Part shown: positions 22,740-57,579 of the stretch, piece after piece
How the letters are laid out: the number at the start of each line of letters is the position of its first letter
Numbering within the stretch: the stretch's first letter is position 1
Source: Candidatus Cloacimonadales bacterium
Lineage (GTDB): Bacteria; Cloacimonadota; Cloacimonadia; Cloacimonadales; DAONDQ01
Assembly: GCA_963662275.1 (NCBI GenBank)
Contig: OY759316.1
Location: forward strand, 2,496,001 to 2,560,000
Direction: 5' to 3'
Length of the DNA: 64,000 nucleotides
The notes under the pieces: generated by a model
What the model was told of the DNA's origin: nothing
Databases searched by the model: none
Seen by the model: only the letters and a program-made list of their open reading frames with translations
Program-made: the position numbers and the translations under genes

Positions 22740-22967
22740 ACTCTATTAAGCTTGAATCTTTCTGCATTCAATACAATAATGATAAATTGATCGTGTGGAC
22801 TTAAGCGATAACTGTGGCTATTAGGGAAACTTAGAGAATTTATACTAAAACCACTTCTTATATTTTCCAGCGAATTATGTTTTCTTCATGCTGTTTCGTG
22901 GTTAAAATCTGTTCTTCTCTTCCGTTCGCACTTCGCACTTCGCACTTACAAAAAGAAAAGGGCGTAA

Positions 22968-23084
<117 letters not shown>

Positions 23085-23154
23085 TACGCCCTTCATACTT
23101 GTTCAATATGCTGAGTTAGGTAAGACGATAAAGGAGCAAGTGTAAAAGTTTTTA

Positions 23155-26281
<3,127 letters not shown>

Positions 26282-26318
26282 ATATCGACTTCTACACTCG
26301 CTCCCACGTCTATACTAC

Positions 26319-26331
26319 TTTTCAAAGATCG
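26319..26331 (-). promoter_or_regulatory. rrn boxA in the 16S-23S spacer (second boxA in the leader at ~28072-28084)
   Basis: CGATCTTTGAAA on the minus strand at both sites. Confidence 0.7.
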
Positions 26332-26465
26332 CTGGCTGATATATCGCTATATCCGCCTGTTTAAATTATCAAAAAATGGAGTGAAGTCAGCGCTTTGCGA
26401 ATGAAATTCATTTGTATGGAAGTTGACCATTTGATCTTACATTTTCTATTGATCGTTTCCTTACA

Positions 26466-28018
<1,553 letters not shown>

Positions 28019-39158: not shown

Positions 39159-40769
39159 CTACCTAATAATAGAGATTTTTTTTGTTTTAACCCGATTACC
39201 TGATTTTACCTGACAGAGATAGATACCACTTGCCATTTTGCTGATATCCAGCATGAAGGTATCAGATATTTTGTTTTTATTTAAGTGTGTTTGCAGCACA
39301 CATTGTCCCCTGATATTATAAATGCTGATGTCGATTGGATTTTTTTCACCGGCGGAGTTATCTTGCAGTTTAATTGCAATATATCGGTCATTAATCCTCA
39401 CAGGATTAGGGCTGATACTCATGGTAATTTGATTTGTAACAGTTGGACTTAGCGGATCATCAATACCAACCGTAGTATCAGCTAATTCTGTATTCCCTGC
39501 ATACACATACACATACCCGCGATAATCGGTGGCAAATTCGTAATCCGTTTCCGGGGCAGAAACGGCAATATCGCAGCATCCATCTGCATTGTAATCACCA
39601 GTAGTTAACCAGAATCCAAAATAGTCCAATGGGTTAGCGGAAATATATGGGGCTGTAATCAATAAATCAGAAATGCCATTGACCTGTGCTCTCCCCAGCC
39701 AGACTTGGAATTGATTGGCATAATAGTTGGTTCCGACAATATCATCGAAACCATCATTATTGAGATCGCCATATTTTAATGATTGCCCGAATTCACCACC
39801 CTGCCAGGGAGGATTGAGAGCGAGGTTAGGTATTGTGTCAGTTTCTGTCGCTCCCAGCCATATATTTAATCCGGCATTAGACTGATAACCCATAAAATCA
39901 TCGATACCATCGCCATTAATATCTCCTAAGGGATTGCTTATTTTTGAAATACCAGCTTGAGTCTGTGTCAAAATCATATAATTGTTGAAATTACTTTCTG
40001 CATTTCCAAAATATAAAGTAATAAGGTGATAGCCGATATAGGGATCTGGATTCGTATATCCGATACTAAAATCATCAAATCCATCGTTATTAATATCCCC
40101 TATTCCATTAAATCCACTTGGATAAGATGTACTGTGAGCACAGGAATTAGTAACATATTGTACAACAAAACTCCCACCCCATACGATATAATAAGATTCT
40201 CCGGGGGAAGAAGAACTGGTACTGAATCCAACATCATCCTTCCCATCACCGTTAAAATCTCCTAATTCACCTACCAATCTTAAATTAGCTCCCGGATCCA
40301 ATGTATACGGAATCAAGATATCCGGTTCTGAGGGAGCAGGATCACCACCCGTGTAAATGCGTAAAAAAAATCCTGTCGGCTGTAAATCAGGTTCATCTCC
40401 ACCGATGTATAAATCATCATAGCCATCACCATTTACATCCCCGATATTGACAACATTATGATATTGATAAGCATATTGCCCAAGCAAAGAGATATCTGCA
40501 ACATTATCAAAATTAGTTCCACCAAAATAGATATCTACTCTCCCCTTGGCTGAGGAAAAAGGAGCAGGATAGACATCTTTCCATTCCGGTGAACAGATAA
40601 TTAAATCGTCAATACCATCATGATTAAAATCAAGAGTAGCCATCGTTTTACCAAATCTGGAATTATGATGTTCACCCTGCATTGATGTCATGATATCGAG
40701 GTGGTTAGTGGCGGAGAGGATGCTGGTGAAAAGAAGAACAGCTAAAACAACTAAAATACCTTTATCCAT
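39159..40769 (-). CDS. FG-GAP repeat beta-propeller protein with C-terminal sorting domain (array copy I)
   Basis: Signal peptide; seven GDxNxDGxDD Ca-binding FG-GAP blades; SPNP...YNIRGQ C-terminal domain. Confidence 0.9.
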   Translation of the reverse strand: MDKGILVVLAVLLFTSILSATNHLDIMTSMQGEHHNSRFGKTMATLDFNHDGIDDLIICSPEWKDVYPAPFSSAKGRVDIYFGGTNFDNVADISLLGQYAYQYHNVVNIGDVNGDGYDDLYIGGDEPDLQPTGFFLRIYTGGDPAPSEPDILIPYTLDPGANLRLVGELGDFNGDGKDDVGFSTSSSSPGESYYIVWGGSFVVQYVTNSCAHSTSYPSGFNGIGDINNDGFDDFSIGYTNPDPYIGYHLITLYFGNAESNFNNYMILTQTQAGISKISNPLGDINGDGIDDFMGYQSNAGLNIWLGATETDTIPNLALNPPWQGGEFGQSLKYGDLNNDGFDDIVGTNYYANQFQVWLGRAQVNGISDLLITAPYISANPLDYFGFWLTTGDYNADGCCDIAVSAPETDYEFATDYRGYVYVYAGNTELADTTVGIDDPLSPTVTNQITMSISPNPVRINDRYIAIKLQDNSAGEKNPIDISIYNIRGQCVLQTHLNKNKISDTFMLDISKMASGIYLCQVKSGNRVKTKKISIIR

Positions 40770-40993
40770 TGGAACTCCTTATTTCTACAACCCACATAAT
40801 ATAAAATATAATATTCACATGTAATTTTCATTCCATAGCAAGTTTTATCCAGTATCTTGCCGGATAATATCCATTTTCACTTTAGTCTATCACTTATTTG
40901 TTTACATTGGTAGCTATTTCTTCAGGAATGGTGGCAGCATGGTTCACCTTGCTTTTCGGAACGCTGTTTTCAAACGGCTATGCAATTTGGCTG

Positions 40994-42607
40994 CTACCGA
41001 ATCACCGTAATCTTCTGTTTCTGCTGTGCTTCACCGCTGGTGAATACACACACATAAACCCCTGATGAAAGATCATTTAAATTGTAAGTCGCAGAACCGG
41101 ATTTGGCTTGTTCTGCGTTCATAATAAACGACTTGACTTTCTGTCCCCGGATATTATAGATACTGATATCAATGGGGCTTATATTATTATGGTTTGAATC
41201 ATTCAGCTTGATTGTCACAAAACGATCATTGGATTTAATGGGATTAGGGCTGATGCTGATGCTCATGTTAAATTGATTGGTAAGAGGCGGACTGAGTGGG
41301 TCATTAATACCAACTGTCGTATCCGCTAATTGCGTATTGCCGGCATAGACATAAACATAGCCCCGATAATCATGTGCCATTGAATCATCAGTAAATGGCG
41401 CAGATACGGCAATATCGCAGCAACCATCTCTATTGTAATCTCCCATAGTTATGCCATAGCCGAAATTGTCTATATCCTCATTCAAGTTGTAAGGTGCATA
41501 AACCAATAAATCTGAATTTCCATTTGGATGTATTCTTCCCATCCAGATTCTGAATTGATTAATATCGTAATCTGCACCTACCACATCATCATAGCCATCG
41601 TGATTTAGATCACCATATTTTAAAGATCGCCCGCTTTCCCCCCCCTGCCAGGAAGGATTAAGAGCAAGATTGGGTAACTCATTAGTTTCAGTAGCTCCCA
41701 GCCAGACATTCAAACCAGCCCCAGACTCATACCCCATAAAATCAGCAATACCGTCACCATTCATATCTCCCAGTGATGTACTTATTTTGGATATACCTGC
41801 TTGAGTTTGCGCTAAAACCATCGTATCCGTGAGTAAGCTATCAGCATTTCCATAATAAAGCGTAATTAAATGATATCCAATATAGGGATCATCATTTGTA
41901 TAGCCAATGGTAAAATCATCATAGCCGTCTCCATTGATATCCCCAATTCCATTAAAACCACTTGGATATGATTCACTATGCAGTGCAGAAGTAGTAACAT
42001 ATTGAAATACGAAACTGCCTCCCCAAACTATATAATAAGATTCACCTGGTGAAGAAGAACTTGAACTGAATCCTATATCATCTTTCCCATCTGCATTAAA
42101 ATCTCCCAATCTACTAACCTTTCTCAAATTAGCTCCCTGATCTAATGTATATGGGATTAAGATATCTGGCTCAATAGGTACAGTACTTCCACCAGCATAT
42201 ATTCTTAGATAATAGACACTCGGATTTGAGGTTGGTTCATCTCCACCGATATATAAGTCATCAAATCCATCACCATTCACATCTCCAATATTTACAACAG
42301 AATGATATTGAAAATCATACTGCCCTTCCATAATAATATCCGGGATGTTATCGAAATTAGGTCCTCCAAAATAGATATCAACTTTACCCATGATCCATCC
42401 TGATGGAAAATCGCTCTTCCATCCTGGTGAGCAGACTATTAGATCATCAAAACCATCATGATTAAAATCCAAGGTTGCCATTGTACTTCCAAAATATGAT
42501 GTATTATGTGCACCCTGCATCGAGGTCATGATATCGAGGTGGTTTGTGGCAGTGAGAATTCCACAGAAAAGTAGGAAAGCGAAGATGATGATAAATAATT
42601 TATTCAT
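40994..42607 (-). CDS. FG-GAP repeat protein (copy H)
   Basis: Same architecture; C-terminal ~50 aa nearly identical to copy G. Confidence 0.9.
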   Translation of the reverse strand: MNKLFIIIFAFLLFCGILTATNHLDIMTSMQGAHNTSYFGSTMATLDFNHDGFDDLIVCSPGWKSDFPSGWIMGKVDIYFGGPNFDNIPDIIMEGQYDFQYHSVVNIGDVNGDGFDDLYIGGDEPTSNPSVYYLRIYAGGSTVPIEPDILIPYTLDQGANLRKVSRLGDFNADGKDDIGFSSSSSSPGESYYIVWGGSFVFQYVTTSALHSESYPSGFNGIGDINGDGYDDFTIGYTNDDPYIGYHLITLYYGNADSLLTDTMVLAQTQAGISKISTSLGDMNGDGIADFMGYESGAGLNVWLGATETNELPNLALNPSWQGGESGRSLKYGDLNHDGYDDVVGADYDINQFRIWMGRIHPNGNSDLLVYAPYNLNEDIDNFGYGITMGDYNRDGCCDIAVSAPFTDDSMAHDYRGYVYVYAGNTQLADTTVGINDPLSPPLTNQFNMSISISPNPIKSNDRFVTIKLNDSNHNNISPIDISIYNIRGQKVKSFIMNAEQAKSGSATYNLNDLSSGVYVCVFTSGEAQQKQKITVIR

Positions 42608-42945
42608 TATAAACTCCTTATAAAATTGACATACACAGCTTACTTCAGGAAGTTTTTATCTCCCTAACAGCGGCTGTTTCCTTCAGGTTACGTATTAACA
42701 TGGTTTACCTTGTTTCTATCTGTAATACAATGACCTAAAGAACATTACCCACAAGCTGAAGCAGTAACCACAAAGAAACTGCATTCTAAAGTAAGTGCAC
42801 AAAACCAGTATCACATATAAAATAATAACATTTCATTTCAAGTCAAGGATTGTTTTTCCAGAGTTGTTTCAATGAACTTTTACTCTCACGTTTATAGTCT
42901 GCAACATTCTTCAGTATTACATCATTTAAAATATGACCTATCCAC
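42608..42945 (-). repeat. Partial copy of the conserved ~400-bp FG-GAP spacer/leader
   Basis: Matches the five full spacers from the start codon back to GACCTATCCAC. Confidence 0.9.
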
Positions 42946-43063
42946 TTCACAAGATGAGGCGTTGCTGTGCCGTTGCACCTGTGGTGATTACTTCAGGAAT
43001 CGTGGCAGCATGGTTCACCTTGCTTTTCGGAACGCTGTTTTCAAACGGCTAGCAGTTTGGCAG

Positions 43064-43100
43064 CTACCGAATCACCGTAATCTTCTGTTTCTGCTGTGCT
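43064..43100 (-). pseudogene. 3' remnant (AQQKQKITVIR*) of a tenth FG-GAP gene
   Basis: Matches the last codons of copy H (40994-41030), together with ~70 bp of its downstream flank. Confidence 0.8.
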
Positions 43101-43203
43101 CTCCACCTCACTTCGCAGTGACGCAGTTACATTCAGCTATAAGGCTTGACGATGCCTTAGAATGGGACTTGAACCCTCTGATTTCTGTCTATCGCTATCG
43201 CAC
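43101..43203 (-). mobile_element. 5' fragment of a group II intron (start of domain I only)
   Basis: Minus strand begins GTGCG and contains GAGGGTTCAAGTCCC...TAGCTGAATGTAACTGCGTCACTGCGAAGTGAGGTGGAG, resembling bacterial group II intron 5' ends; no RT ORF and no domain V/VI. Confidence 0.7.
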
Positions 43204-43564
43204 TAGTTCCGCATTTACGCGGTTGTAGAGCTGGATGCCGATCATGCTGTCTGCTATACAATCCGTAGGATGTAATTCTGCTAGCCCAGGAAGTCCTTCC
43301 TGGGTAGAGCGATGTGAGAGGAATAACCGCCTGCAGCTTATGCTGCATGAGTCCATTAGGACGGCACTATTTACCGCATTCTCCAAACACTTAATACATT
43401 CCCCATTATATATACCTGGTCAAAGCCAAGTTTAAACAAATACTAATCCTGTTTCATTTCAATTTCCCGAAACAGGATTGAAACAGGATTGAAACTGGTA
43501 TGAACTTGGTATAATATACGTGGAATAATAGTGGATTGTGCGGGGGCAACGCCTTTGTTTAAAA

Positions 43565-43680
43565 GGTGGATAGGTCGTATCTAGTACGATACAAGCTGAT
43601 GTAAATCCATTATGTTATTGCATTAAGAAAGTCTAGATTTGTTTGGTATTTTGCATCATTTAAAAAATGACCTATCCACC
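43565..43680. mobile_element. MITE-like 116-bp element with ~30-bp imperfect terminal inverted repeats
   Basis: GGTGGATAGGTCgtatctagtacgatacaa ... ttgcatcatttaaaaaatGACCTATCCACC. Confidence 0.6.
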
Positions 43681-43890
43681 TCACAAGATGAGGCGTTGCT
43701 GTGCCGTTGCACCTGTGGTGATTACTTAAGGAATGGTGGCAGCATGGTTTACCTTGCTTTTCGGAACGCTGTTTTTAAACGGCTATGCATATACATATAG
43801 CTCTCTTATTGCCGGAAACATACAAAAGAACTGCATCATTTAAAAAAAGTTTACCCCCCTTAATCCCCCCTCAGGTAGGGGGGGGAAAAG

Positions 43891-45540
43891 CTACCTTATC
43901 ACCGTTATCTTCTGTTTCTGCTGTGCTTCACCGCTGGTGAATACACACACATAAACCCCTGATGAAAGATCATTTAAATTGTAAGTCGCAGAACCTGATT
44001 TAGCTTGTTCTGCATTCATAGTAAACGACTTGACTTTCTGTCCCCGGATATTATAGATTTCGAAGGTAGAAGCTCCCCCCTTGGGAAGGGGGGTAGGGGG
44101 GGTAACCGTAAATCTGACATTAAGTTCAGAATTCCAAGACTGCAGCGGATTGGGATACAACTGCAGTTTGGAGATTGCTGGAGTATTTGTTTCATCAGCA
44201 TTGGGTGTTGGATCATCCAGTTGCGTGTTTCCGGCATAGACAAATACACGACCAGGTGTAGGAAAAGCTGCATAATCAAACGGTGCCGAAATGGCAGCAT
44301 CGCAGCAGCCGTCCCCATTGTAATCGCCCATGGTCAGGCAGAAGCCATACATGTCAGTTTCCACATCAAGATATGGTGGTGTCAAATGCAGATCGGGACC
44401 TCCGTTCATAGGAATGCCTCCTATCCACAGGTAGGCGTCTCCATAACCGCTAAACTGGGTAACATTGGTGCCCATCAGATCATCTGTGCCATTACCATTC
44501 ACATCGCCGTGACAAAAACCTTCACCGGCCGGATCACCGCTGTACGGAGGAGCAATGTTTACACAATTGGTTCCGTTAAAACCAGGACCTCCAAATATTA
44601 GTTTAGCATCTGAACCGGAGAAGGCACTCACGAAATCATCATGACCATCTCCATTTACATCACCTGCAGGATAAACACAGGTATTGAAATTTAATCCTTC
44701 ACAAATTACTAAGCTGTCATTATAAGCACTTGTTGAATCCCCATAATACAAAATTACTTTGGAATATCTTTCATTGTCATTATCAATGATATATTTGTAA
44801 CTTATGCAAAAATCATCTATCCCATCAGCATTTACATCACCTACACTGCAAATATTATCTTTATCCATTGAAGTACCTGCTTCCATGAAAACTGTATTAG
44901 TCATGCTTCCTCCATAAATAACTTCGAAGGTAATCGGAGGTCGGAAACCATTCCTTATCATAGCAAATCCAAGATCATCAAAACCATCATGATTTATATC
45001 CCCTAAACCACGTACAAAACCACCACCGTTATGCCATTCCTCCCTCGGGAAAGTGAGTATATAATCGGGAACAGTATCGGGATTCGCACCACCGTAAAAG
45101 ACGCAGAGCTGCAAGTCATAGAACTGATCTATATTCTCTTCATACATCGTCGCCCGAAACAATGCCAGGTCATCTATCCCATCACCATTCATATCGCCCG
45201 CATTGCACATGGAGGATGAAAGTCCATATTCTATCTCATGGTGACCGGTGATTTCCATTTCAGGCACATTATCAAAATTGGGACCGCCAAAATAAATGTA
45301 TAGTTTACCATATGGGTATGGTGGATAAGAAGGAGTATAACCTCTGGGATCCCAATTAGGTGAAGTTATAATTAAATCATCATTGCTATCTCCATTCCAG
45401 TCGAGAGTAGTCATGAGTCTGCCCATCGAAGAATGATCATGTTCCCCGGTCATGGTGGTCATAATATCCATGTGGTTCAAGGCAGGGAGAATGCTGGTGA
45501 AAAGAAGAACAGCTAAAACAGCTAAAATACCTTTATACAT
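43891..45540 (-). CDS. FG-GAP repeat protein (copy G, most divergent)
   Basis: FG-GAP blades and C-terminal domain with a palindrome-encoded TPPTPLPKGG segment. Confidence 0.9.
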   Translation of the reverse strand: MYKGILAVLAVLLFTSILPALNHMDIMTTMTGEHDHSSMGRLMTTLDWNGDSNDDLIITSPNWDPRGYTPSYPPYPYGKLYIYFGGPNFDNVPEMEITGHHEIEYGLSSSMCNAGDMNGDGIDDLALFRATMYEENIDQFYDLQLCVFYGGANPDTVPDYILTFPREEWHNGGGFVRGLGDINHDGFDDLGFAMIRNGFRPPITFEVIYGGSMTNTVFMEAGTSMDKDNICSVGDVNADGIDDFCISYKYIIDNDNERYSKVILYYGDSTSAYNDSLVICEGLNFNTCVYPAGDVNGDGHDDFVSAFSGSDAKLIFGGPGFNGTNCVNIAPPYSGDPAGEGFCHGDVNGNGTDDLMGTNVTQFSGYGDAYLWIGGIPMNGGPDLHLTPPYLDVETDMYGFCLTMGDYNGDGCCDAAISAPFDYAAFPTPGRVFVYAGNTQLDDPTPNADETNTPAISKLQLYPNPLQSWNSELNVRFTVTPPTPLPKGGASTFEIYNIRGQKVKSFTMNAEQAKSGSATYNLNDLSSGVYVCVFTSGEAQQKQKITVIR

Positions 45541-45912
45541 TGGTACTCCTTATTTCTACAACCCACAGAATATAAAATATAATATTCACACGTAATTTTC
45601 GTTCCATTGCTATTTTTATCCTGTATCTTGCCGGATAATATCTATTTTCTCTTAATCTATCACGTTTTTGTTAATTTCATTGTTGTTTCTGGGGCGCCAT
45701 CTATTTGATGGTGCTACGTACTCTTTTAGAGGACGTATTCTCTTCATTGGCATTTCAATAAAGAAAACACCGGATATCAGATAATGTTAAAACATTAAAA
45801 CGGCTGAAGCAGTTGATCTAACGACAGAAGATCATGTTAAAACATGATAACTGCTGAAGCAGTTGATCCAACGACTGAAGTTGTTGCTACGGAATACCCG
45901 TTGAAGTTGTTG

Positions 45913-47523
45913 CTACCGAATAAAAGAGATTTTTTTAACTTCTGCTCTGTTTCCTTGTTTTACTTGGCAGAGATAGACACCACTTGCCATTTTACTAATA
46001 TCCATACTGTAGGTATCCGATATCGCAGTTTTATCTGAGTGTATCTTTTGCATACATTGTCCCCTGATATTGTAAATGCTGATGTCTATTAGACTTTTAT
46101 CATTATTGGATACATTTCTGAGTTTGACAGAAATATAGCGATCAGTTATTCTTGCAGGATTAGGGCTGATGCTCATGTCGAATTGATTGGTAACAGGAGG
46201 AGTCAGAGGGTCATTAATACCAACTGTCGTATCCGCTAATTGCGTATTTCCAGCATAAACGTAAACATACCCCCGATAATCAGGTAAAAGCGTATTATCC
46301 GTAAAAGGAGCTGATATAGCAATATCACAGCAGTCATCACCATTGTAATCACCCATTGTTAAACCATACCCAAAATAATCCAATAGATTTGCAGGAATAT
46401 AAGGAGCATTAATTAGCAAATCCGAATCCCCATTAGGTTGTGCTCTTCCCAGCCAGATGCGAAATGCATTTTGATAATAATTTGTGCCGACAACATCATC
46501 AAAACCATCGTTATTCAAATCACCATATTTCAGACACTGCCCAAATTCGTCTCCTTGCCAAGCAGGATTTAATGCAAAATTCGGAATACTGTCAGTTTCA
46601 GTCGATCCCAACCAAACATTTAACCCTGCAATGGACTGATATCCCATGAAGTCAGCAAATCCGTCACCATTAAGATCTCCCAAAGGAGTGCTAATTTTGG
46701 ATATACCTGTCTGTGTCTGTGTCAATACCATTTGGTTATCAGATGAGCCTGTTGCATTACCAAAATAGATAGTTATGAGATGGTAACCTATATTGGGATC
46801 TTCATTCGTGTAACCGATAGCAAAATCATCGTATCCATCATGATTAATATCTCCAATACCGTTAAACCCAGTAGTATAAGAGTCACTAAAATCAGAGGAT
46901 GTGGTAATATACTGTCTTTCAAAACTATTACCCAACATAATATAAAATATCTCTGCTAAATTTGGCGTACCAATGCTGAACCCAATATCATCATAATTAT
47001 CCCCGTTAATATCACCTAAAGGAGTCACTTTGGCTACATAATAATTCGTTTCCAGAGTATAAGAAATCATGATATCCGGTTCAGTCGGAACAGTGTCACC
47101 ACCTGTATAAATTCTTAGATAGTGTTCAATGGGATTAGCAGTAGGTTCATCTCCATTAATGTATAAATCATCAAATCCATCACCGTTCACATCGCCGATG
47201 TTAACGACGGACTTATATTGAAAATCATACTGCCCTTCCATCGTGATATCAGGGACATTATCAAAGTCAGAACCTCCAAAATAGATATCCACTTTTCCTT
47301 TTGGCCAATCCATTGGTGCCGGATAAACGCTTTTCCATTCAGGCGAGCAGACAATCAAATCATCAAAACCATCATGATTAAAGTCCAAGGTTGCCATTGT
47401 ACTTCCAAAATATGATGTATTATGTGCACCCTGCATTGAGGTCATGATATCGAGGTGGTTTGTGGCAGCGAGAATTCCACAGAAAAGTAGGAAAGCGAAG
47501 ATGATGATAAATAATTTATTCAT
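45913..47523 (-). CDS. FG-GAP repeat protein (copy F)
   Basis: Start reassigned to MNKLF (AAGGAG RBS), as in its paralogs. Confidence 0.9.
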   Translation of the reverse strand: MNKLFIIIFAFLLFCGILAATNHLDIMTSMQGAHNTSYFGSTMATLDFNHDGFDDLIVCSPEWKSVYPAPMDWPKGKVDIYFGGSDFDNVPDITMEGQYDFQYKSVVNIGDVNGDGFDDLYINGDEPTANPIEHYLRIYTGGDTVPTEPDIMISYTLETNYYVAKVTPLGDINGDNYDDIGFSIGTPNLAEIFYIMLGNSFERQYITTSSDFSDSYTTGFNGIGDINHDGYDDFAIGYTNEDPNIGYHLITIYFGNATGSSDNQMVLTQTQTGISKISTPLGDLNGDGFADFMGYQSIAGLNVWLGSTETDSIPNFALNPAWQGDEFGQCLKYGDLNNDGFDDVVGTNYYQNAFRIWLGRAQPNGDSDLLINAPYIPANLLDYFGYGLTMGDYNGDDCCDIAISAPFTDNTLLPDYRGYVYVYAGNTQLADTTVGINDPLTPPVTNQFDMSISPNPARITDRYISVKLRNVSNNDKSLIDISIYNIRGQCMQKIHSDKTAISDTYSMDISKMASGVYLCQVKQGNRAEVKKISFIR

Positions 47524-47927
47524 TATAAACTCCTTATAAAATTGACATACACAGCTAACATCAGGAAGTTTTATCTCACTAACGGTGGCTGTTTCTTTCA
47601 GGTAACGTGTTAACATGGTTTACCTTGTTTCTATCTGTAATACAATGACCTAAAGAACATTACCCACAAGCTGAAGCAGTAACCACAAAGAAACTGCATT
47701 CTAAAATAAGCGCACAAAACCAGTATCACATATAAAATAATAACATTTCATTTCAAGTCAAGGATTGTTTTTCCAGAGTTGTTTCAATGAACTTTTACTC
47801 TCACGTTTACATTCTGTAACATTCTTCAGTATTGCATCATTTAAAATATGACCTATCCACCGATTAAAAATCAGCGTCGCGTTTGAAAAAAGAATACTTT
47901 CCAGAGGATAAACACATGGGTTTATCC
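47524..47927 (-). repeat. Conserved ~400-bp spacer (REP + IS-like end + promoter + leader)
   Basis: Near-identical to 49539-49943, 51555-51957, 53566-53966 and 55578-55980. Confidence 0.95.
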
Positions 47928-49538
47928 CTACTTTACCAACGATATTTTTTTTGTTTTAACCCGATTACCTGATTTTACCTGGCAGAGATAGACACCGCTT
48001 GCCATTTTACTGATATCCACCATGTAAGCATTTGATACTGTGGCTTTATCTGAGTGTATCTTTTGCACACATTGACCCCTGATATTATAAATGCTGATAT
48101 CAATTGTACTTTTATCATTATTTGATACATTCCCGAGTTTGACAGAAATATAGCGATCACTTATTTTTGCAGGATTAGGGCTGATGCTCATGTCGAATTG
48201 ATTGGTAAGAGGCGGACTGAGAGGGTCAATAATACCAACTGTTGTGTCTGCTAATTGTGTATTTCCGGCATAGACATAAACATAGCCCCGGTAATCATGT
48301 GCCATAGAATCATCAGTAAATGGGGCAGATACGGCAATATCACAGCAGTCATCCCCGTTGTAATCTCCCATTGTAAGACGGTAACCGAAGTAATCCAATG
48401 GATTTTCAGGAATATAGGGTGCTGTTACGAAAAGATCGGAATCTCCGTTCACTTGTGCTCTTCCCATCCAGATTTGGAATTGATTACTATAAAAATTAGA
48501 ACCAACCACATCGTCAAAGCCATCGTTATTCAAATCTCCAAATTTTAAACATTGTCCGAATTCCCCTCCCTGCCAGGGTGGATTTAAAGCAAAATTCGGT
48601 AATGTATCAGATTCAGTCGAACCCAGCCAGACATTTAACCCCGTCATGGACTGATATCCCATGAAATCATCAATACCGTCACCATTAATATCTCCCAAGG
48701 GAGTACTAATCTTGGATATACCTGCTTGAGTTTGAGTTAGAACCAAATTGTTGGTAAGGATACCATCTGCATTTCCATAATAGATTGTAATTAGATGATA
48801 GCCTATATTTGGGTCTTCATTTGTATAACCGATAGAAAAATCATCATAGCCATCATTATTAATATCTCCTATTCCATTAAAACCAGTTGTATAAGAATCA
48901 CTATAATCAGAGGATGTAGTAACATACTGTCTTTCTAAATCATTACCCCTTATAATGTAAAATATTTCTGCCAAATTTGGAGTACCGATACTGAAACCAA
49001 TTTCATCATAATTATCTCCGTTAATATCTCCTAAAGGAGCCACTTTGGCTACATAATAATTCGTTTCCAGAGTATATGGAATCATAATATCCGGTTGTGT
49101 TGGAGCAGTATTCCCACCAGTATAGATTCTTAGATAATATGTACTTGGACTAGCGGTCGGTTCATCTCCATTAATGTATAAATCATCAAATCCATCACCG
49201 TTCACATCGCCGATGTTAACGACGGACTTACATTGAAAATCATACTGCCCTTCCATGGTAATATCCGGGATGTTATTAAAATTAGGTCCTCCAAAATAGA
49301 TATCAACTTTGCCTTTTTGATTATCAAAAGGAGCAGGATATGTACTTTTCCATCCCCTGGAACATACAACCAGATCATCATACTCGTCATGATTAAAATC
49401 CAGCGTTGCCATTGTCTCTCCAAAAGAGGCATGATTGTGCGAACCTTGCATTGAGGTCATAATATCAAGGTGGTTTGTGGCGGAGAGAATTCCAAAGAAA
49501 AGTAGGAAAGCTAAGAGCATGATAAATAATTTATTCAT
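47928..49538 (-). CDS. FG-GAP repeat protein (copy E)
   Basis: Same architecture. Confidence 0.9.
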   Translation of the reverse strand: MNKLFIMLLAFLLFFGILSATNHLDIMTSMQGSHNHASFGETMATLDFNHDEYDDLVVCSRGWKSTYPAPFDNQKGKVDIYFGGPNFNNIPDITMEGQYDFQCKSVVNIGDVNGDGFDDLYINGDEPTASPSTYYLRIYTGGNTAPTQPDIMIPYTLETNYYVAKVAPLGDINGDNYDEIGFSIGTPNLAEIFYIIRGNDLERQYVTTSSDYSDSYTTGFNGIGDINNDGYDDFSIGYTNEDPNIGYHLITIYYGNADGILTNNLVLTQTQAGISKISTPLGDINGDGIDDFMGYQSMTGLNVWLGSTESDTLPNFALNPPWQGGEFGQCLKFGDLNNDGFDDVVGSNFYSNQFQIWMGRAQVNGDSDLFVTAPYIPENPLDYFGYRLTMGDYNGDDCCDIAVSAPFTDDSMAHDYRGYVYVYAGNTQLADTTVGIIDPLSPPLTNQFDMSISPNPAKISDRYISVKLGNVSNNDKSTIDISIYNIRGQCVQKIHSDKATVSNAYMVDISKMASGVYLCQVKSGNRVKTKKISLVK

Positions 49539-49943
49539 TATAAACTCCTTATAAAATTGACATACACAACTTACTTCAGGAATTTTATCTCTCTAATGGT
49601 GGCTGTTTCCTTCAGGTAGCGTGTTAACATGGTTTACCTTGTTTCTATCTGTAATACAATGACCTAAAGAACATTACCCACAAGCTGAAGCAGTAACCAC
49701 AAAGAAACTGCATTCTAAAGTAAGTGCACAAAACCAGTATCACATATAAAATAATAACATTTCATTTCAAGTCAAGGATTGTTTTTCCAGAGTTGTTTCA
49801 ATGAACTTTTACTCTCACGTTTATAGTCTGTAACATTCTTCAGTATTGCATCATTTAAAATATGACCTATCCACCGATTAAAAATCAGCGTTGCATTTCA
49901 AAAAAAAGCATACTTTCCAGAGGATAAACACATGGGTTTATCC
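49539..49943 (-). repeat. Conserved ~400-bp spacer
   Basis: Near-identical copy. Confidence 0.95.
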
Positions 49944-51554
49944 CTACTTTACCAACGATATTTTTTTTGTTTTAACCCGATTACCTGATATTACCTGGCA
50001 GAGATAGACACCACTTGCCATTTTGCTGATATCCAGCATGAATGTATCAGATGTTTTGTTTTTATTTAAGTGTGTTTGCTGCACACATTGTCCCCTGATA
50101 TTAAAAATGCTTATATCGATTGGATTTTTTTCACCGGCTGAATTGTCTTGCAGTTTAATTGCAATATATCGGTCATTAATCCTCACAGGATTAGGGCTGA
50201 TACTCATGGTAATTTGATTTGTAACTTTTGGACTTAGCGGATCATTAATTCCGACTGTAGTATCAGCTAATTCTGTATTCCCTGCATACACATACACATA
50301 CCCGCGATAATCGGTGGCAAATTCGTAATCCGTTTCCGGTGCAGAAATGGCAATATCACAGCATCCATCTGCATTGTAATCCCCCATAGTTAATCCATAT
50401 CCAAAATAGTCCAATGGGTTAGCGGAAATATATGGGGCTGTAATCAATAAATCAGAAATGCCATTGACCTGTGCTCTCCCCAGCCAGACTTGGAATTGAT
50501 TTGAATAGAAATTAGCACCTGCAATATCATCAAAGCCATCGTTATTTAAATCACCATATTTCAGTGAAAAGCCATCTTCCCCTCCCTGCCAGGGAGGATT
50601 CAATGCAAAATTTGGTATGGAATCAGTATCAGTTGCTCCAAACCAGACATTCAAACCGGCTATGGATTGATAACCCATAAAATCATCTAAGCCATCACCA
50701 TTAATATCTCCCAACGGTGTACTTATTTTTGAAATACCAGCTTGAGTCTGTGTCAAAATCATATAATTGTTAAAATTACTTTCTGCATTTCCAAAATATA
50801 AAGTAATGAGGTGATAACCTATATTAGGATCTTCGTTTGTATAACCGATAGCGAAATCGTCATAACCATCATGATTAATATCCCCTATCCCATTAAAACC
50901 ATTTGAATAAGATGCACTAAAATCAGAGGAAGTGGTAATATACTGTCTTTCTAAACTATTACCCCACAAAATATAAAAAATCTCTGCTAAATTTGGCGTA
51001 CAAATGCTGAACCCAATATCACCATAATTATCCCCATTAATATCACCTAAATTGACAACATGATAAAGATCATATTCGGCTTCTAAAGTATACGGAATCA
51101 AGATATCCGGTTCTGCAGGAGCTATACTACTACCTGTATATATTCTCAAATAGTATATACTTGGATTTGACTCCGGTTCATCACCACCGATGCATAAATC
51201 ATCATAGCCATCGCCGTTGAGATCTCCGATATTGACAACACTATGATATTGATCAGCATATTGCCCAAGCAAAGAGATTTCTGCAACATTATCAAAACCC
51301 AGTCCACCAAAATAGATATCCACTCTACCTTTATTATATGAAGGGGGGGTTGGATATGGATTTCTCCAAGCAGGGGAACAGACAATAAGATCGTCATGAC
51401 CATCATGATTAAAATCAAGGGTAGCCATCGTTTCTCCAAAAGAGGCATGATTGTGCGAACCTTGCATTGATGTCATAATATCAAGATGGTTTGTGGCGGA
51501 GAGAATTCCAAAGAAAAGTAGGAAAGCTAAGAGCATGATAAATAATTTATTCAT
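49944..51554 (-). CDS. FG-GAP repeat protein (copy D)
   Basis: Core nearly identical to copy B. Confidence 0.9.
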   Translation of the reverse strand: MNKLFIMLLAFLLFFGILSATNHLDIMTSMQGSHNHASFGETMATLDFNHDGHDDLIVCSPAWRNPYPTPPSYNKGRVDIYFGGLGFDNVAEISLLGQYADQYHSVVNIGDLNGDGYDDLCIGGDEPESNPSIYYLRIYTGSSIAPAEPDILIPYTLEAEYDLYHVVNLGDINGDNYGDIGFSICTPNLAEIFYILWGNSLERQYITTSSDFSASYSNGFNGIGDINHDGYDDFAIGYTNEDPNIGYHLITLYFGNAESNFNNYMILTQTQAGISKISTPLGDINGDGLDDFMGYQSIAGLNVWFGATDTDSIPNFALNPPWQGGEDGFSLKYGDLNNDGFDDIAGANFYSNQFQVWLGRAQVNGISDLLITAPYISANPLDYFGYGLTMGDYNADGCCDIAISAPETDYEFATDYRGYVYVYAGNTELADTTVGINDPLSPKVTNQITMSISPNPVRINDRYIAIKLQDNSAGEKNPIDISIFNIRGQCVQQTHLNKNKTSDTFMLDISKMASGVYLCQVISGNRVKTKKISLVK

Positions 51555-51957
51555 TATAAACTCCTTATAAAATTGACATACACAACTTACTTCAGGAATT
51601 TTATCTCTCTAATGGTGGCTGTTTCCTTCAGGTAGCGTATTAACATGGTTTACCTTGTTTCTATCTGTAATACAATGACCTAAAGAACATTACCCACAAG
51701 CGAAAGCAGTAACCACAAAGAAACGGCATTCTAAAGTAAGCGCACAAAACCAGTATCACATATAAAATAATAACATTTCATTTCAAGTCAAGGATTGTTT
51801 TTCCAGAGTTGTTTCAATGAACTTTTACTCTCACGATTATAGTCTGTAACATTCTTCAGTATTGCATCATTTAAAATATGACCTATCCACCGATTAAAAA
51901 TCAGCGTCGCGTTTGAAAAAAGAATACTTTCCAGAGGATAAACACATGGGTTTATCC
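51555..51957 (-). repeat. Conserved ~400-bp spacer
   Basis: Near-identical copy. Confidence 0.95.
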
Positions 51958-53565
51958 CTACTTAACTAATGAGATTTTTTTGATTTTTACCCTATTACCT
52001 TTTGTTAATTGACATAGATAGATGCCACTTGCTATTTTATGAATATCAAGAGAGTATGTATCTGTTATGTTATTTTTATCGAAGTGTGCTTGCTGCACAC
52101 ATTGTCCCCTAATGTTATAAATTCTGATGTCAATTGGGCTTTTATCAGTACCTTGATTAGTCAGTTTGATGTTAATATTGCGATCGTTTGAATTCACCGG
52201 ATTAGGACTGATGCTGATATTAAACTGGCTAGATATAGGCGGTGTTAAAGGATCATTAATTCCTACTGTAGTGTCTGCCAATTCAGTATTTCCAGCATAA
52301 ACGTAAACATACCCCCGATAATCAGGTAAAAGCGTATTATCCGTAAAAGGTGCTGATACGGCAATATCACAGCAGTCATCCCCATTATAATCACCCATCG
52401 TTAAACCATACCCAAAATAATCCAACAGATTTGCAGGAATATAAGGTGCTGTTACTGATAAATCCGAATCACCATTAGGATGAGTTCTTCCTAACCAGAT
52501 TCTGAATGCATTCTCATAAAAATTTGTACCAACAACATCATCAAAACCATCATTATTCAAATCACCATATTTCAGAGAAAATCCGAATTCACTACCTTGC
52601 CAAGGGGGATTAAAAAAAAGATCAGGAATAAGATTTGTTTGCTGTGAACCTAACCAGATACATAACCCATCATTTGACTCATACCCCATAAAATCATCTA
52701 ACCCATCTCCGTTGATATCCCCAATTGGAGTACTGGTCTTTGTTATTGGTGCCTGGGTATGGGCTAAATTAACGGTATTAGTTAATTCACTTTCCTCATT
52801 TCCAAAGTAAATAATTATCAAATGATAGCCGGTATTAGGATCAGCATTTGTATAGCCTATTGAAAAATCATCATATCCATCACCATTGATATCTCCAACA
52901 CCGCTAATATTATAAGTATATGACGAAGCATGAGCACTAGAAATAGTGATCAACTCAGTTTCAAAACTTCCTCCCCATATAATATAATATGCTTCACATG
53001 TAGAAAAAATATCAGTACTAAATCCTATCTCATCAATATGATCGCCATTAAAATCCCCTAATTTGGTTACCCACGTTAAATTATTACCTGATGCCAATGG
53101 ATATGAAATCATAATATCCGGTTCAGTAGGAACAGTGTCACCACCTGTATAAATCCTCAAATAATACGCAGTCGGATTTGATGTAGGCTCATCGCCACCG
53201 ATATATAAATCATCATATCCATCACCATTCACATCACCTACATTAACGACAGACTTATACTGGAAATCATACTGTCCTAACATTGTAATATCCGGGATGT
53301 TATCAAAGTTTGTTCCACCAAAATAGATATCCACTCTTCCTTTGGGCCAATTCACAGGATCAGGATAAAGACTTTTCCATTCCGGAGAGCAGACAATCAA
53401 GTCATCAAATCCATCATGATTAAAATCCAAAGTTGCCATCGTTGCGCCAAAATATGAATTATTATGGGCACCTTGCATGGAGGTCATGATATCCATGTGG
53501 TTCAAGGCAGGGAGAATTCGAGAGAAAAGTAGGAAAGCGAAGATGATGATAAATAATTTATTCAT
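51958..53565 (-). CDS. FG-GAP repeat protein (copy C)
   Basis: Same architecture; tail identical to copy B. Confidence 0.9.
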   Translation of the reverse strand: MNKLFIIIFAFLLFSRILPALNHMDIMTSMQGAHNNSYFGATMATLDFNHDGFDDLIVCSPEWKSLYPDPVNWPKGRVDIYFGGTNFDNIPDITMLGQYDFQYKSVVNVGDVNGDGYDDLYIGGDEPTSNPTAYYLRIYTGGDTVPTEPDIMISYPLASGNNLTWVTKLGDFNGDHIDEIGFSTDIFSTCEAYYIIWGGSFETELITISSAHASSYTYNISGVGDINGDGYDDFSIGYTNADPNTGYHLIIIYFGNEESELTNTVNLAHTQAPITKTSTPIGDINGDGLDDFMGYESNDGLCIWLGSQQTNLIPDLFFNPPWQGSEFGFSLKYGDLNNDGFDDVVGTNFYENAFRIWLGRTHPNGDSDLSVTAPYIPANLLDYFGYGLTMGDYNGDDCCDIAVSAPFTDNTLLPDYRGYVYVYAGNTELADTTVGINDPLTPPISSQFNISISPNPVNSNDRNINIKLTNQGTDKSPIDIRIYNIRGQCVQQAHFDKNNITDTYSLDIHKIASGIYLCQLTKGNRVKIKKISLVK

Positions 53566-53966
53566 TATATACTCCTTATAAAATTGACATACACAACTTA
53601 CTTCAGGAATTTTATCTCTCTAATGGTGGCTGTTTCCTTCAGGTAACGTGTTAACATGGTTTACCTTGTTTCTATCTGTAATACAATGACCTAAAGAACA
53701 TTACCCACAAGCTGAAGCAGTAACCACAAAGAAACTGCATTCTAAAGTAAGCGCACAAAACCAGTATCACATATAAAATAATAACATTTCATTTCAAGTC
53801 AAGGATTGTTTTCCAGGATTTTTTAATGAACTTTTACTCTCACGTTTATAGTCTGCAACATTCTTCAGTATTGCATCATTTAAAATATGACCTATCCACC
53901 GATTAAAAATCAGCGTCGCGTTTGAAAAAAGAATACTTTCCAGAGGATAAACACATGGGTTTATCC
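53566..53966 (-). repeat. Conserved ~400-bp spacer
   Basis: Near-identical copy. Confidence 0.95.
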
Positions 53967-55577
53967 CTACTTAACTAATGAGATTTTTTTGATTTTTACC
54001 CTATTACCTTTTGTTAATTGACATAGATAGATGCCACTTGCTATTTTATGAATATCAAGAGAGTATGTATCTGTTATGTTATTTTTATCGAAGTGTGCTT
54101 GCTGCACACATTGTCCCCTAATATTAAAAATGCTGATGTCGATTGGATTTTTTTCACCGGCTGAATTATCTTGCAGTTTAATTGCAATATATCGGTCATT
54201 AATCCTCACAGGATTAGGGCTGATACTCATGGTAATTTGATTTGTAGCAGTCGGACTTAGCGGATCATCAATACCAACTGTAGTGTCTGCTAATTCTGTA
54301 TTACCGGCATACACATAAACATACCCGCGATAATCGGTGGCAAATTCGTAATCCGTTTCCGGTGCAGAAATGGCAATATCACAGCATCCATCTGCATTGT
54401 AATCCCCCATAGTTAATCCATATCCAAAATAGTCCAATGGGTTAGCGGAAATATATGGGGCTGTAATCAATAAATCAGAAATGCCATTGACCTGTGCTCT
54501 CCCCAGCCAGACTTGGAATTGATTTGAATAGAAATTAGCACCTGCAATATCATCAAAGCCATCGTTATTTAAATCACCATATTTCAGTGAAAAGCCATCT
54601 TCCCCTCCCTGCCAGGGAGGATTCAATGCAAAATTTGGTATGGAATCAGTATCAGTTGCTCCAAACCAGACATTCAAACCGGCTATGGATTGATAACCCA
54701 TAAAATCATCTAAGCCATCACCATTAATATCTCCCAACGGTGTACTTATTTTTGAAATACAAGCTTGAGTCTGTGTCAAAATCATATAATTGTTAAAATT
54801 ACTTTCTGCATTTCCAAAATATAAAGTTATGAGGTGATAACCTATATTAGGATCTTCGTTTGTATAACCGATAGCGAAATCGTCATAACCATCATGATTA
54901 ATATCCCCTATCCCATTAAAACCATTTGAATAAGATGCACTAAAATCAGAGGAAGTGGTAATATACTGTCTTTCTAAACTATTACCCCACAAAATATAAA
55001 AAATCTCTGCTAAATTTGGCGTACAAATGCTGAACCCAATATCACCATAATTATCCCCATTAATATCACCTAAATTGACAACATGATAAAGATCATGCTC
55101 GGCTTCTAAAGTATACGGAATCAAGATATCCGGTTCTGCAGGAGCTATACTACTACCTGTATATATTCTCAAATAGTATGTACTTGGATTTGACTCCGGT
55201 TCATCACCACCGATGCATAAATCATCATAGCCATCGCCGTTGAGATCTCCGATATTGACAACACTATGATATTGATCAGCATATTGCCCAAGCAAAGAAA
55301 TTTCTGCAACATTATCAAAACCCAGTCCACCAAAATAGATATCCACTCTACCTTTATTATATGAAGGGGGGGTTGGATATGGATTTCTCCAAGCAGGGGA
55401 ACAGACAATAAGATCGTCATGACCATCATGATTAAAATCAAGGGTAGCCATCGTTTTACCAAATCTAGAATTATGATGTTCACCCTGCATTGTGGTCATG
55501 ATATCGAGGTGGTTAGTGGCGGAGAGAATTCCAAAGAAAAGTAGGAAAGCTAAGAGGACGATAAATAATTTATTCAT
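53967..55577 (-). CDS. FG-GAP repeat protein (copy B)
   Basis: Start reassigned to MNKLF (AAGGAG RBS). Confidence 0.9.
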   Translation of the reverse strand: MNKLFIVLLAFLLFFGILSATNHLDIMTTMQGEHHNSRFGKTMATLDFNHDGHDDLIVCSPAWRNPYPTPPSYNKGRVDIYFGGLGFDNVAEISLLGQYADQYHSVVNIGDLNGDGYDDLCIGGDEPESNPSTYYLRIYTGSSIAPAEPDILIPYTLEAEHDLYHVVNLGDINGDNYGDIGFSICTPNLAEIFYILWGNSLERQYITTSSDFSASYSNGFNGIGDINHDGYDDFAIGYTNEDPNIGYHLITLYFGNAESNFNNYMILTQTQACISKISTPLGDINGDGLDDFMGYQSIAGLNVWFGATDTDSIPNFALNPPWQGGEDGFSLKYGDLNNDGFDDIAGANFYSNQFQVWLGRAQVNGISDLLITAPYISANPLDYFGYGLTMGDYNADGCCDIAISAPETDYEFATDYRGYVYVYAGNTELADTTVGIDDPLSPTATNQITMSISPNPVRINDRYIAIKLQDNSAGEKNPIDISIFNIRGQCVQQAHFDKNNITDTYSLDIHKIASGIYLCQLTKGNRVKIKKISLVK

Positions 55578-55980
55578 TATAAACTCCTTATAAAATTGAC
55601 ATACACAGCTTACTTCAGGAAGTTTTATCTCACTAACGGTGGCTGTTTCCTTCAGGTAACATGTTAACATGGTTTACCTTGTTTCTATCTGTAATACAAT
55701 GACTTAAAGAACATTACCCACAAGCTGAAGCAGTAACCACAAAGAAACTGCATTCTAAAGTAAGCGCACAAAACCAGTATCACATATAAAATAATAACAT
55801 TTCATTTCAAGTCAAGGATTGTTTTTCCAGAGTTGTTTCAATGAACTTTTACTCTCACGTTTATATTCTGTAACATTCTTCAGTATTGCATCATTTAAAA
55901 TATGACCTATCCACGATTAAAAATCAGCGTCGCGTTTGAAAAAAGAATACTTTCCAGAGGATAAACACATGGGTTTATCC
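55578..55980 (-). repeat. Conserved ~400-bp spacer
   Basis: Near-identical copy. Confidence 0.95.
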
Positions 55981-57579
55981 CTACTTTACCAACGATATTT
56001 TTTTTGTTTTAACCCGATTACCTGACTTTACCTGGCAGAGATAGATACCGCTTGCCATTTTACTAATATCCATACTGTAAGTATCCGATATCGCAGTTTT
56101 ATCTGAGTGTATCTTTTGCATACATTGTCCCCTGATATTGTAAATGCTGATGTCTATTAGACTTTTATCATTATTGGATACATTTCTGAGTTTGACAGAA
56201 ATATAGCGATCAGTTATTCTTGCAGGATTAGGGCTGATGCTCATGTCGAATTGATTGGTAACAGGAGGAGTCAGAGGGTCATTAATACCAACTGTCGTAT
56301 CCGCTAATTGCGTATTGCCGGCATAGACATAAACATAGCCCCGGTAATCATGTGCCATAGAATCATCAGTAAATGGCGCAGATACGGCAATATCACAACA
56401 GCCATCACCATTATAATCTCCCATAGTTAATCCGTATCCAAAATAGTCTAAAGAATTATTGGGGGCATCAATTAATAAATCGGATGTGCCGTTAACCAGT
56501 GTTCTTCCCATCCAAATCCTGAATTGATCTATATAGAAATTTGCACCAACTACATCGTCAAAGCCATCATTATTCAAATCACCGTATTTTAGTGAAAATC
56601 CGAATTCACTACCCTGCCAAGGTGGATTGAGAGCTAAGTTTGGTATGGTATCAGTTTCCGTTGATCCCAGCCAGATATTTAAACCGGCAATAGACTGATA
56701 ACCCATAAAGTCATCTATTCCGTCACCATTGATATCCCCCAAAGGAGTACTAATCTTTGATATTCCTGCTTGCGTCTGGGTTAAAACCATTGTATCTGTT
56801 ATTGTACCTTCCGAATTCCCATAATAGACTGTAATCAGATGATATCCAGTATTAGGGTCTTCATTTGTATAGCCAATGGCGAAATCATCAAACCCATCAT
56901 TATTTATATCTCCGATTCCGTTAAAACCACTAGTATATGACATCGCATGATTGCTGGAAGTAGTTATATATTGGGGTACATTACTACCTCCCCAAACAAG
57001 ATAATATGCTTCTGCTGAAATAGATGTCTCTGTGCTAAAACCAATCTCTTCAACATGATCACCGTTAAAGTCTCTTAATTTATAAACACCTGTTAGATTA
57101 CAACTCGCTCCTAGTGTATAAGGAATCATGATACTAGGTTGTGTAGGAGCTGTATTCCCACCAGTATAGATTCTTAGATAATATGTACTTGGACTAGCTG
57201 TCGGTTCATCTCCACCTATATATAGATCATCAAATCCATCTCCATTCACATCACCGACATTAACAACAGACCTGAATTGATAATCATACTGTCCTTCCAT
57301 CGTGATATCAGGGATATTATCAAAGTTCTGTCCTCCAAAATAAATATCTACTTTACCTTTTACTATAGCTGGGGTAGGATAACTGCTGTTCCACCCTCTT
57401 TCACAAACTACTAAGTCATCATAACCATCATGATTAAAATCCAAAGTTGCTATTGTCTCTCCAAAACGGGAATTGTGATGGTCTCCTTGCATTGATGTCA
57501 TGATATCGAGATGGTTAGTGGCGGAGAGGATGCTGGTGAAAAGAAGAACAGCTAAAACAACTAAAATACCTTTATACAT
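55981..57579 (-). CDS. FG-GAP repeat protein (copy A, first in transcription order)
   Basis: Same architecture; C-terminal domain largely identical to copy F. Confidence 0.9.
   Translation of the reverse strand: MYKGILVVLAVLLFTSILSATNHLDIMTSMQGDHHNSRFGETIATLDFNHDGYDDLVVCERGWNSSYPTPAIVKGKVDIYFGGQNFDNIPDITMEGQYDYQFRSVVNVGDVNGDGFDDLYIGGDEPTASPSTYYLRIYTGGNTAPTQPSIMIPYTLGASCNLTGVYKLRDFNGDHVEEIGFSTETSISAEAYYLVWGGSNVPQYITTSSNHAMSYTSGFNGIGDINNDGFDDFAIGYTNEDPNTGYHLITVYYGNSEGTITDTMVLTQTQAGISKISTPLGDINGDGIDDFMGYQSIAGLNIWLGSTETDTIPNLALNPPWQGSEFGFSLKYGDLNNDGFDDVVGANFYIDQFRIWMGRTLVNGTSDLLIDAPNNSLDYFGYGLTMGDYNGDGCCDIAVSAPFTDDSMAHDYRGYVYVYAGNTQLADTTVGINDPLTPPVTNQFDMSISPNPARITDRYISVKLRNVSNNDKSLIDISIYNIRGQCMQKIHSDKTAISDTYSMDISKMASGIYLCQVKSGNRVKTKKISLVK

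Follow-up and report, generated by a model that had tools for sequence, protein, structure and literature searches.

The window analysed here, a stretch of 64,000 nucleotides (nt) from the genome of a Candidatus Cloacimonadales bacterium, carries a tandem array of nine paralogous genes, which we call A to I in the order of their transcription. These genes are mosaics, and as far as can be judged from sequence comparison they very probably became so through repeated non-reciprocal gene conversion, both within this array and between it and a second array in the same genome, with old module alleles as the material. The mosaic is real, its statistical support is overwhelming, and its mechanism is ordinary. 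The genes belong to a lineage-specific family with 13 close and 2 divergent members, which is held in two arrays of one Cloacimonadota genome. Positions below are those of the window unless they bear the prefix C1.

All nine genes of the first array are minus-strand open reading frames (ORFs) of 532-549 codons, and they follow one another with a strict period of 2011-2016 nt (a unit of 2.01 kb). Gene A (55981-57579), with a putative signal peptide of the MYKGIL type, an FG-GAP propeller, a C-terminal domain of the type IX secretion system (T9SS) and a short, type-2 upstream region, is followed by B (53967-55577), C (51958-53565), D (49944-51554), E (47928-49538), F (45913-47523), G (43891-45540), H (40994-42607) and I (39159-40769). 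Gene I again has a type-2 upstream region, and only 8 nt separate its stop from the start of a large downstream gene. Gene G is divergent, at about 50% nucleotide identity to the others; M of the second array resembles it at 81%, and the last ~150 nt of G equal those of H at 97%. The second array also holds close counterparts of C (N, 99.7% identity over 1143 nt) and of D (J, 100% over 1264 aligned nt). In B and F the longest ORF reaches 55670 and 47616, respectively, and thus begins 93 nt (31 codons) upstream of the start aligned with the other genes, the methionine of MNKLF at 55577 in B and the start at 47523 in F. The aligned start is preferred because the extra stretch is part of the conserved spacer in an alignment of the upstream regions.

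What makes the genes mosaic is that the closest paralog switches along each of them, with tracts of 97-100% identity at the DNA level on a background of about 70%. The original prediction, made from the letters of this window, had described the pattern as shared protein motifs, and every one of these was found as listed. The loop of the last blade has three alleles, one in B, D and I, one in A, E and H, and one in C and F; GEHHNSRFGKT is shared by B and I, and GSHNHASFGET by D and E; B and C share a tail, as do G and H, and A and F share the C-terminal domain; YTLETNYYVAKV recurs in E and F, EPTASPSTYYLRIYTGGNTAPTQP in A and E, and SSSSPGESYYIVWGGSFV in H and I. Most of these motifs are tracts of shared DNA, synonymous sites included. 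The exception is SSSSPGESYYIVWGGSFV, whose surrounding DNA is only ~81% identical between H and I, and therefore this sharing is supposed to be old.

If the longest concordant fragment of each pair is taken, A and F share 264 nt (A 56051-56314, F 45983-46246) at 99.6% identity against 71% outside, B and C share 151 nt (B 53970-54120, C 51961-52111) at 100% against 69%, and the tails of G and H share 148 nt (G 43909-44056, H 41012-41159) at 97% against 50%. The core common to B and D is much longer (B 54321-55456, D 50298-51433; 1136 nt, 99.5% against 85% outside), and D and E have 119 nt in common at 98% against 75%. An older tract is represented by an internal patch of F (46884-47020), which is common to B, D and J over 137 nt at 94% against 73%. 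Tracts were called among the 74 pairs that are not near-identical overall, the pairs BD, BJ, CN and DJ being excluded, and 54 were obtained, with a median length of 119 nt and a range of 42-579 nt; these counts do not represent independent events, as B, D and J share tracts by descent. Both ends lie inside the gene in 39 of the 54. As to identity, 19 tracts are at 100%, three at 99-100%, 24 at 97-99%, three at 95-97% and five below 95%. Their ends define 42 distinct breakpoint positions, which are scattered over the entire gene.

Tests for recombination gave the same picture. The pairwise homoplasy index with site permutation deviated by z = -43 for eight genes, -46 for nine and -49 for the 13 genes from both arrays, and in none of these three gene sets was any of 1000 permutations as low as the observed value. 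For 47 of the 105 gene pairs, none of the 500 site shuffles yielded a concordant fragment as long as the longest one observed. When the alignment was divided into six segments of 284 nt, conflicting maximum-likelihood trees were obtained, and approximately unbiased (AU) tests rejected 28 of 30 topologies taken from other segments at p<0.05. Both topologies that escaped rejection concern segment 3 (p=0.077 for the tree of segment 2, p=0.19 for the whole-gene tree), and the whole-gene tree was rejected by five of the six segments. It had been claimed that no single duplication tree explains the pattern, and comparison of trees along the gene had been proposed as the check; the segment trees are indeed incongruent, and the claim is borne out.

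Is the window, then, the whole unit of exchange? A search of the genome revealed six further paralogs (J to O) at C1:3690111-3701814; they lie on the plus strand, inverted with respect to the first array, at a distance of 1.15 Mb from it. They are followed, 8 nt after the last paralog, by a gene for a T9SS protein of about 1520 amino acids (1518), so that the locus extends over C1:3690111-3706379. As many as 33 of the 54 tracts connect the first array with the second. Gene L of the second array combines pieces of four genes of the first (F, A, E and H), and G pairs with M across the arrays. The large gene downstream of I (34561-39150, minus strand, 1529 amino acids) takes part as well through a long inter-locus tract: between it and its counterpart, the 3′ ~2.3 kb are 95-100% identical and the 5′ ~2.4 kb only 42-78%, and the similarity stops at the stop codon. 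Thus the mosaic that had been predicted for a unit of nine genes stands, while the unit itself was incomplete, with six paralogs and a large downstream gene to be added. All 15 copies are full length and have an open frame, a start codon, a putative signal peptide, an AAGGAG site and a conserved upstream region.

The position of the second array also bears on the mechanism. From cumulative GC skew the origin is placed near 4.16 Mb and the terminus at about 1.8-2.2 Mb. The two arrays are thus on the same replichore and oppositely oriented, and the idea that they are symmetric about the origin or the terminus was rejected for that reason. A crossover between them would invert 1.15 Mb, which favours non-crossover outcomes. 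The original prediction had offered gene conversion or unequal crossover as the process. Conversion is upheld by the homoplasy and AU tests and by the 39 internal patches, whereas unequal crossover fails for the inter-array tracts, since the partner array is inverted and 1.15 Mb distant. Patches that are in register, bounded on both sides and copied with retention of the donor point therefore to non-reciprocal gene conversion by homologous recombination. The idea that the conserved blades serve as crossover points did not hold: breakpoints lie on average 92 nt from the blade motifs, compared with 82 nt for random positions (p=0.73). The sequence at the breakpoints is slightly more conserved (0.808 vs 0.773, p=0.02), an excess that detection bias alone could give.

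How have these genes been shuffled? Very probably, short stretches were copied again and again from one paralog to another by ordinary homologous recombination, while the donor was kept. The copied stretches are mostly 40-600 nt long, with some beyond 1.3-2.3 kb, and copying has taken place within each array as well as between the two inverted arrays. The transfers range in age from very recent ones, still 100% identical, to older ones at 92-98%. Near-uniform spacers and signal-peptide ends probably also permit unequal crossover that sets the copy number. The process is likely to depend on RecA, because replacement is in register and a dedicated enzyme is absent.

A dedicated system would be the rival to such a simple mechanism. 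In that case diversification would be programmed by an enzyme or element, such as a diversity-generating retroelement, a shufflon-type recombinase, or cassettes like those of pilE/pilS with an initiating sequence in the spacer. In favour of it, the spacers, which are far more uniform than synonymous sites, might harbour such an initiating sequence, the family shows the phenomenon in other Cloacimonadota as well, and tracts are many, 19 of the 54 being still perfect. Against these points, no reverse transcriptase (RT, PF00078) was found within 40 kb of either array and no site-specific recombinase adjoins either of them. The spectrum of mismatches is ordinary, most of them lying at third codon positions and 40% involving no A, which together with the missing RT led us to reject a diversity-generating retroelement. 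All 15 copies are full length with their own upstream regions and look expressible, and antigenic variation of the cassette type, with an expression site and silent donors, was rejected accordingly. At gathering thresholds Rfam gave no match in the array, the only match in the window being the ribosomal RNA (rRNA) operon. On balance programmed diversification seems quite improbable to us. The prediction that the window contains no dedicated recombinase or RT was correct in substance: there is no RT, and what exists, more than 25 kb off, is an IS21-family element (11438-13738), with integrase-core and Mu-transposase C-terminal pieces apparently spread over two ORFs plus IstB, and a gene for a RadA/Sms-like recombination protein (9488-10858). 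RT matches number 18 in the genome, mostly multi-copy ORFs of 412-465 amino acids in a few groups with identical scores, and their size and copy number suggest several active families of the group II intron type.

The intergenic spacers deserve a separate description. The type-1 spacer, of which the one at 55578-55980 on the minus strand is an example (~403 nt), consists of a terminator-like hairpin, a promoter-like region, a long leader and the AAGGAG ribosome site. It precedes B, C, D, E and F in the first array and J, K, L, N and O in the second, and the median pairwise identity of these ten copies is 96%, above the conservation of synonymous sites in the flanking genes. The leader, of about 190 nt, matched no Rfam family; it contains a short upstream ORF, which in four cases (B, F, L and O) shares the reading frame of the gene behind it. 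In A, G, I and M the short type-2 upstream region takes its place; it accompanies a different signal peptide (MYKGIL or MDKGIL) and is a module in its own right, because A and I are otherwise of the main type. Near uniformity is maintained in the spacers and over the initial ~120 nt of the genes, the signal-peptide ends, and unequal crossover through the spacers may have built the array with its 2.01-kb period or set its copy number. As to why the spacers are uniform and the genes diverged, either conversion occurs often along the entire unit and selection acts against homogenised coding variants, or exchange starts in the spacers.

The spacer between G and H is enlarged (42608-43890, minus strand, 1283 nt), being composed of a type-1 spacer and ~600 nt of short repeats, with a ~135-nt duplication on either side of this insert. 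These repeats recur at hundreds of places in the genome, and a 48-nt unit forms dense arrays near C1:2347800-2354300. Just downstream of the stop of G (43891 region), the coding strand has a C6...G8 hairpin and, after it, a T-run, which together resemble a terminator; the G8/C8 run, which lies outside the coding region, could vary in length. A permissive Rfam scan of this spacer yielded CRISPR-DR5 at 27.9 bits (cut-off 40) and Acido-Lenti-1 at 19.8 (cut-off 37), both of which were taken as chance.

In a repetitive array like this one, the possibility of an assembly artefact has to be weighed, in which reads of similar paralogs were misjoined into chimeric genes. The unit of 2.01 kb is repeated with spacers ~96% identical, a short-read assembly of a genome of the same genus (G001) breaks exactly at these genes and has its matches at contig ends, and the public contigs that match the array are at most 997 nt long. 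On the other side, the genome is a single contig of 4.38 Mb without N, and all 15 genes keep open frames. It is to be noted that 35 of the 54 tracts are imperfect, which is what real events of various ages predict and misjoins do not. Unique stretches are matched without a difference by public contigs from runs of two independent studies, and one of these contigs, of 777 nt, contains the whole B/D/J-like patch of F. Furthermore, the same pattern is seen in four other genomes, three of which were assembled in 1-2 contigs. We therefore regard an artefact as hardly credible. Five runs of two studies contain this stretch, which is covered in 30 of 30 depth bins in runs X1, X3 and X4 and in 28 of 30 in X5. 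Letter differences clustered at 40340-40372 in X4 and at 52939-53019 in X1 and X3 were not counted as population variation, because a near-identical paralog exists for each place (K for I, N for C), and the contigs may belong to that paralog and have been placed on the wrong copy. Joints in the contigs with sides of only 22-32 letters were likewise left out of account.

The four other genomes just mentioned are all those Cloacimonadota genomes in which tandem arrays were examined (two families by label, 2-4 members each), and each shows the block pattern. In one of them (G021), a pair of genes is 96-100% identical over ~450 nt and 57-80% identical over most of the remainder. The module alleles are found again, differently combined, in proteins of other assemblies: P0013 has the C/F loop allele, for example, and in P0014 a main-type core is joined to a G/H-type tail. 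The alleles are thus older than this species. Such relatives, at 51-70% overall identity, lead to another explanation, in which transformation and homologous recombination brought the shared segments in from other strains or species, and some genes, O above all, have long stretches without a close donor in the genome. For all 54 tracts, though, a near-identical partner exists in the same genome, at 100% in 19 cases, so that a donor within the genome is the simplest reading, and the external relatives are much less similar overall. Import as the source of the shared segments is accordingly very improbable. Import and conversion within the genome do not exclude each other, and import may add alleles to the pool.

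What has kept the alleles different? Synonymous sites between alleles are near saturation, with the synonymous divergence dS above 1 in most windows of 15 codons, and the overall ratio dN/dS of non-synonymous to synonymous divergence is 0.17, and therefore the alleles seem to be ancient and under purifying selection. Selection, by phages or through recognition of partners, may maintain their differences, and combinatorial diversity, which the original prediction had proposed as the outcome, is plausible as a selected function. Several observations weigh against the reading as a whole, and against its adaptive part in particular. No 15-codon window has a dN/dS above 0.53, and loops are only at the border of being more variable than strands in their non-synonymous differences (pN 0.184 vs 0.137, p=0.051). 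In D the variable patches are at residues of about 62-74, 157-170, 184-217, 256-264 and 424-432. As a signal of positive selection is absent, the adaptive part is based on the difference between the spacers, which are uniform, and the coding DNA, which has diverged. A copying-path model of the Li-Stephens type needed 140 switches, compared with 143-180 in five codon-shuffled controls, gave no added support, and was used as a descriptive map only. The direction of a transfer can be read only if there is an outgroup for each segment, and the evidence at the junctions consists of short public contigs (the longest piece 997 nt), which can be confused between near-identical paralogs.

Concerning the products, the FG-GAP profile PF01839 matches all nine proteins of the first array (E 1e-18 to 6e-30), PF13517 also matches all nine, and the sorting domain Por_Secre_tail (PF18962) is found at the C-terminus of every one (E 1e-9 to 2e-12). 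Each gene encodes a hydrophobic N-terminus (judged by inspection), which is a helix at residues 3-16 in the model of D. Seven motifs of the type DxNxDGxxD per protein mark the blades. An AlphaFold2 model of D, computed from an input of 100 sequences, has a mean pLDDT of 86, a pTM of 0.76 and ~28 propeller strands, and its best matches in the PDB by Foldseek are headpieces of integrin alpha (E ~1e-12), with TM-scores of only 0.4-0.5. Profiles, motifs and this predicted structure together show the fold to be a seven-bladed FG-GAP beta-propeller with calcium motifs, similar to that of integrin alpha. The genome has a homologue of SprA, the component that was searched for (one SprA_N match above cut-off, in an ORF of 2090 amino acids), and at least 150 of its ORFs end in a T9SS sorting domain; therefore, the products are probably T9SS cargo, either on the cell surface or released from it, surface display being the step that we infer. 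The nearest named relatives are metagenome-assembled genomes of Cloacimonadota.

Around these genes some further features can be mentioned. The N-terminal part of the 1529-amino-acid protein belongs to no clear Pfam family and has only a weak match to G8. About ten more distant FG-GAP/T9SS paralogs (35-38% amino acid identity) are located elsewhere in the genome, several of them in pairs, such as those at C1:1851595-1855261 and 2891793-2895289, and parts of the type-1 spacer sequence recur beside some distant paralogs, as in the vicinity of C1:3888475 and 514583. A complete rRNA operon (16S, 23S and 5S) is located on the minus strand at 22967-28018, ~11 kb from the array.

The family is an unusually clean and large case: its 15 intact genes are divided between two arrays, the breakpoint positions number at least 42, and the tracts are of every age. 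Variation of bacterial surface proteins by gene conversion is already familiar, and no new mechanism is shown here. The lineage is uncultured and non-pathogenic, so that a host immune system cannot be the driver, and phage pressure or recognition of a substrate or partner is the likely selective force. The case also draws attention to a family whose genes are broken up or collapsed in short-read metagenome assemblies, as in the genome of the same genus that holds such genes only at contig ends. A more far-reaching idea, which we think unlikely, is that Cloacimonadota keep a trans-specific library of ancient module alleles and reshuffle it fast enough for repertoires to differ within one population, the exchange being seeded from the ~400-nt spacers as recombination-initiating elements. 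If that is true, a free-living syntrophic anaerobe would have a combinatorial repertoire of surface receptors, which would serve escape from phages or recognition of partners and not immune evasion. One literature search found no printed description of this Cloacimonadota family of FG-GAP/type IX secretion proteins.

Among known systems, those with cassettes, Neisseria pilE/pilS, Borrelia vlsE and Treponema tprK, produce mosaic surface-protein genes by non-reciprocal conversion, and they consist of one expressed gene and many silent, truncated donors. The conversion of short segments is the likeness to the present arrays, and the difference is that every copy here looks expressible. The classical analogue with several loci is the opa family of Neisseria, in whose alleles recombination has reassorted semivariable and hypervariable regions into mosaics. 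A genome has several complete, separately promoted opa genes with near-identical copies among them, and the repertoire evolves continuously (PMC13183285). The likeness lies in the complete, separately promoted genes and in the near-identical copies within a genome. The opa genes are scattered single loci for beta-barrel adhesins of a human pathogen, with a phase-variable switch of pentamer repeats, whereas the genes described here form two tandem arrays in an environmental anaerobe, and by eye no phase-variable repeat was seen in their upstream regions.

The closest parallel is probably the tandem locus of leucine-rich repeat (LRR) surface-protein genes in Flavobacterium psychrophilum, reportedly described by Duchaud and colleagues in 2007. 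According to what Altae-Tran and colleagues stated of this locus in 2020, as many as 19 genes stand there in tandem, and their products are putative binding proteins of the cell surface, each of which carries a secretion peptide at its N-terminus and a T9SS signal at its C-terminus; the locus has two conserved types of intergenic region, extensive signatures of recombination and, as given there, no mobile-element genes (PMC10392669). The same source suggests a link to phage pressure, and it mentions broken gene fragments joined at microhomologies of 1-5 bp, which its authors read as illegitimate recombination (PMC10392669). Thus, both are tandem arrays of T9SS cargo genes with two conserved intergenic types and heavy recombination. 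They differ in the variable part: in F. psychrophilum it is an LRR solenoid whose repeats vary in number, and here it is a propeller with a fixed number of seven blades. And while the Flavobacterium locus contains broken fragments, the Cloacimonadota genes are 15 intact copies of near-constant length, in which segments are replaced in register, and their two distant arrays exchange sequences with each other.

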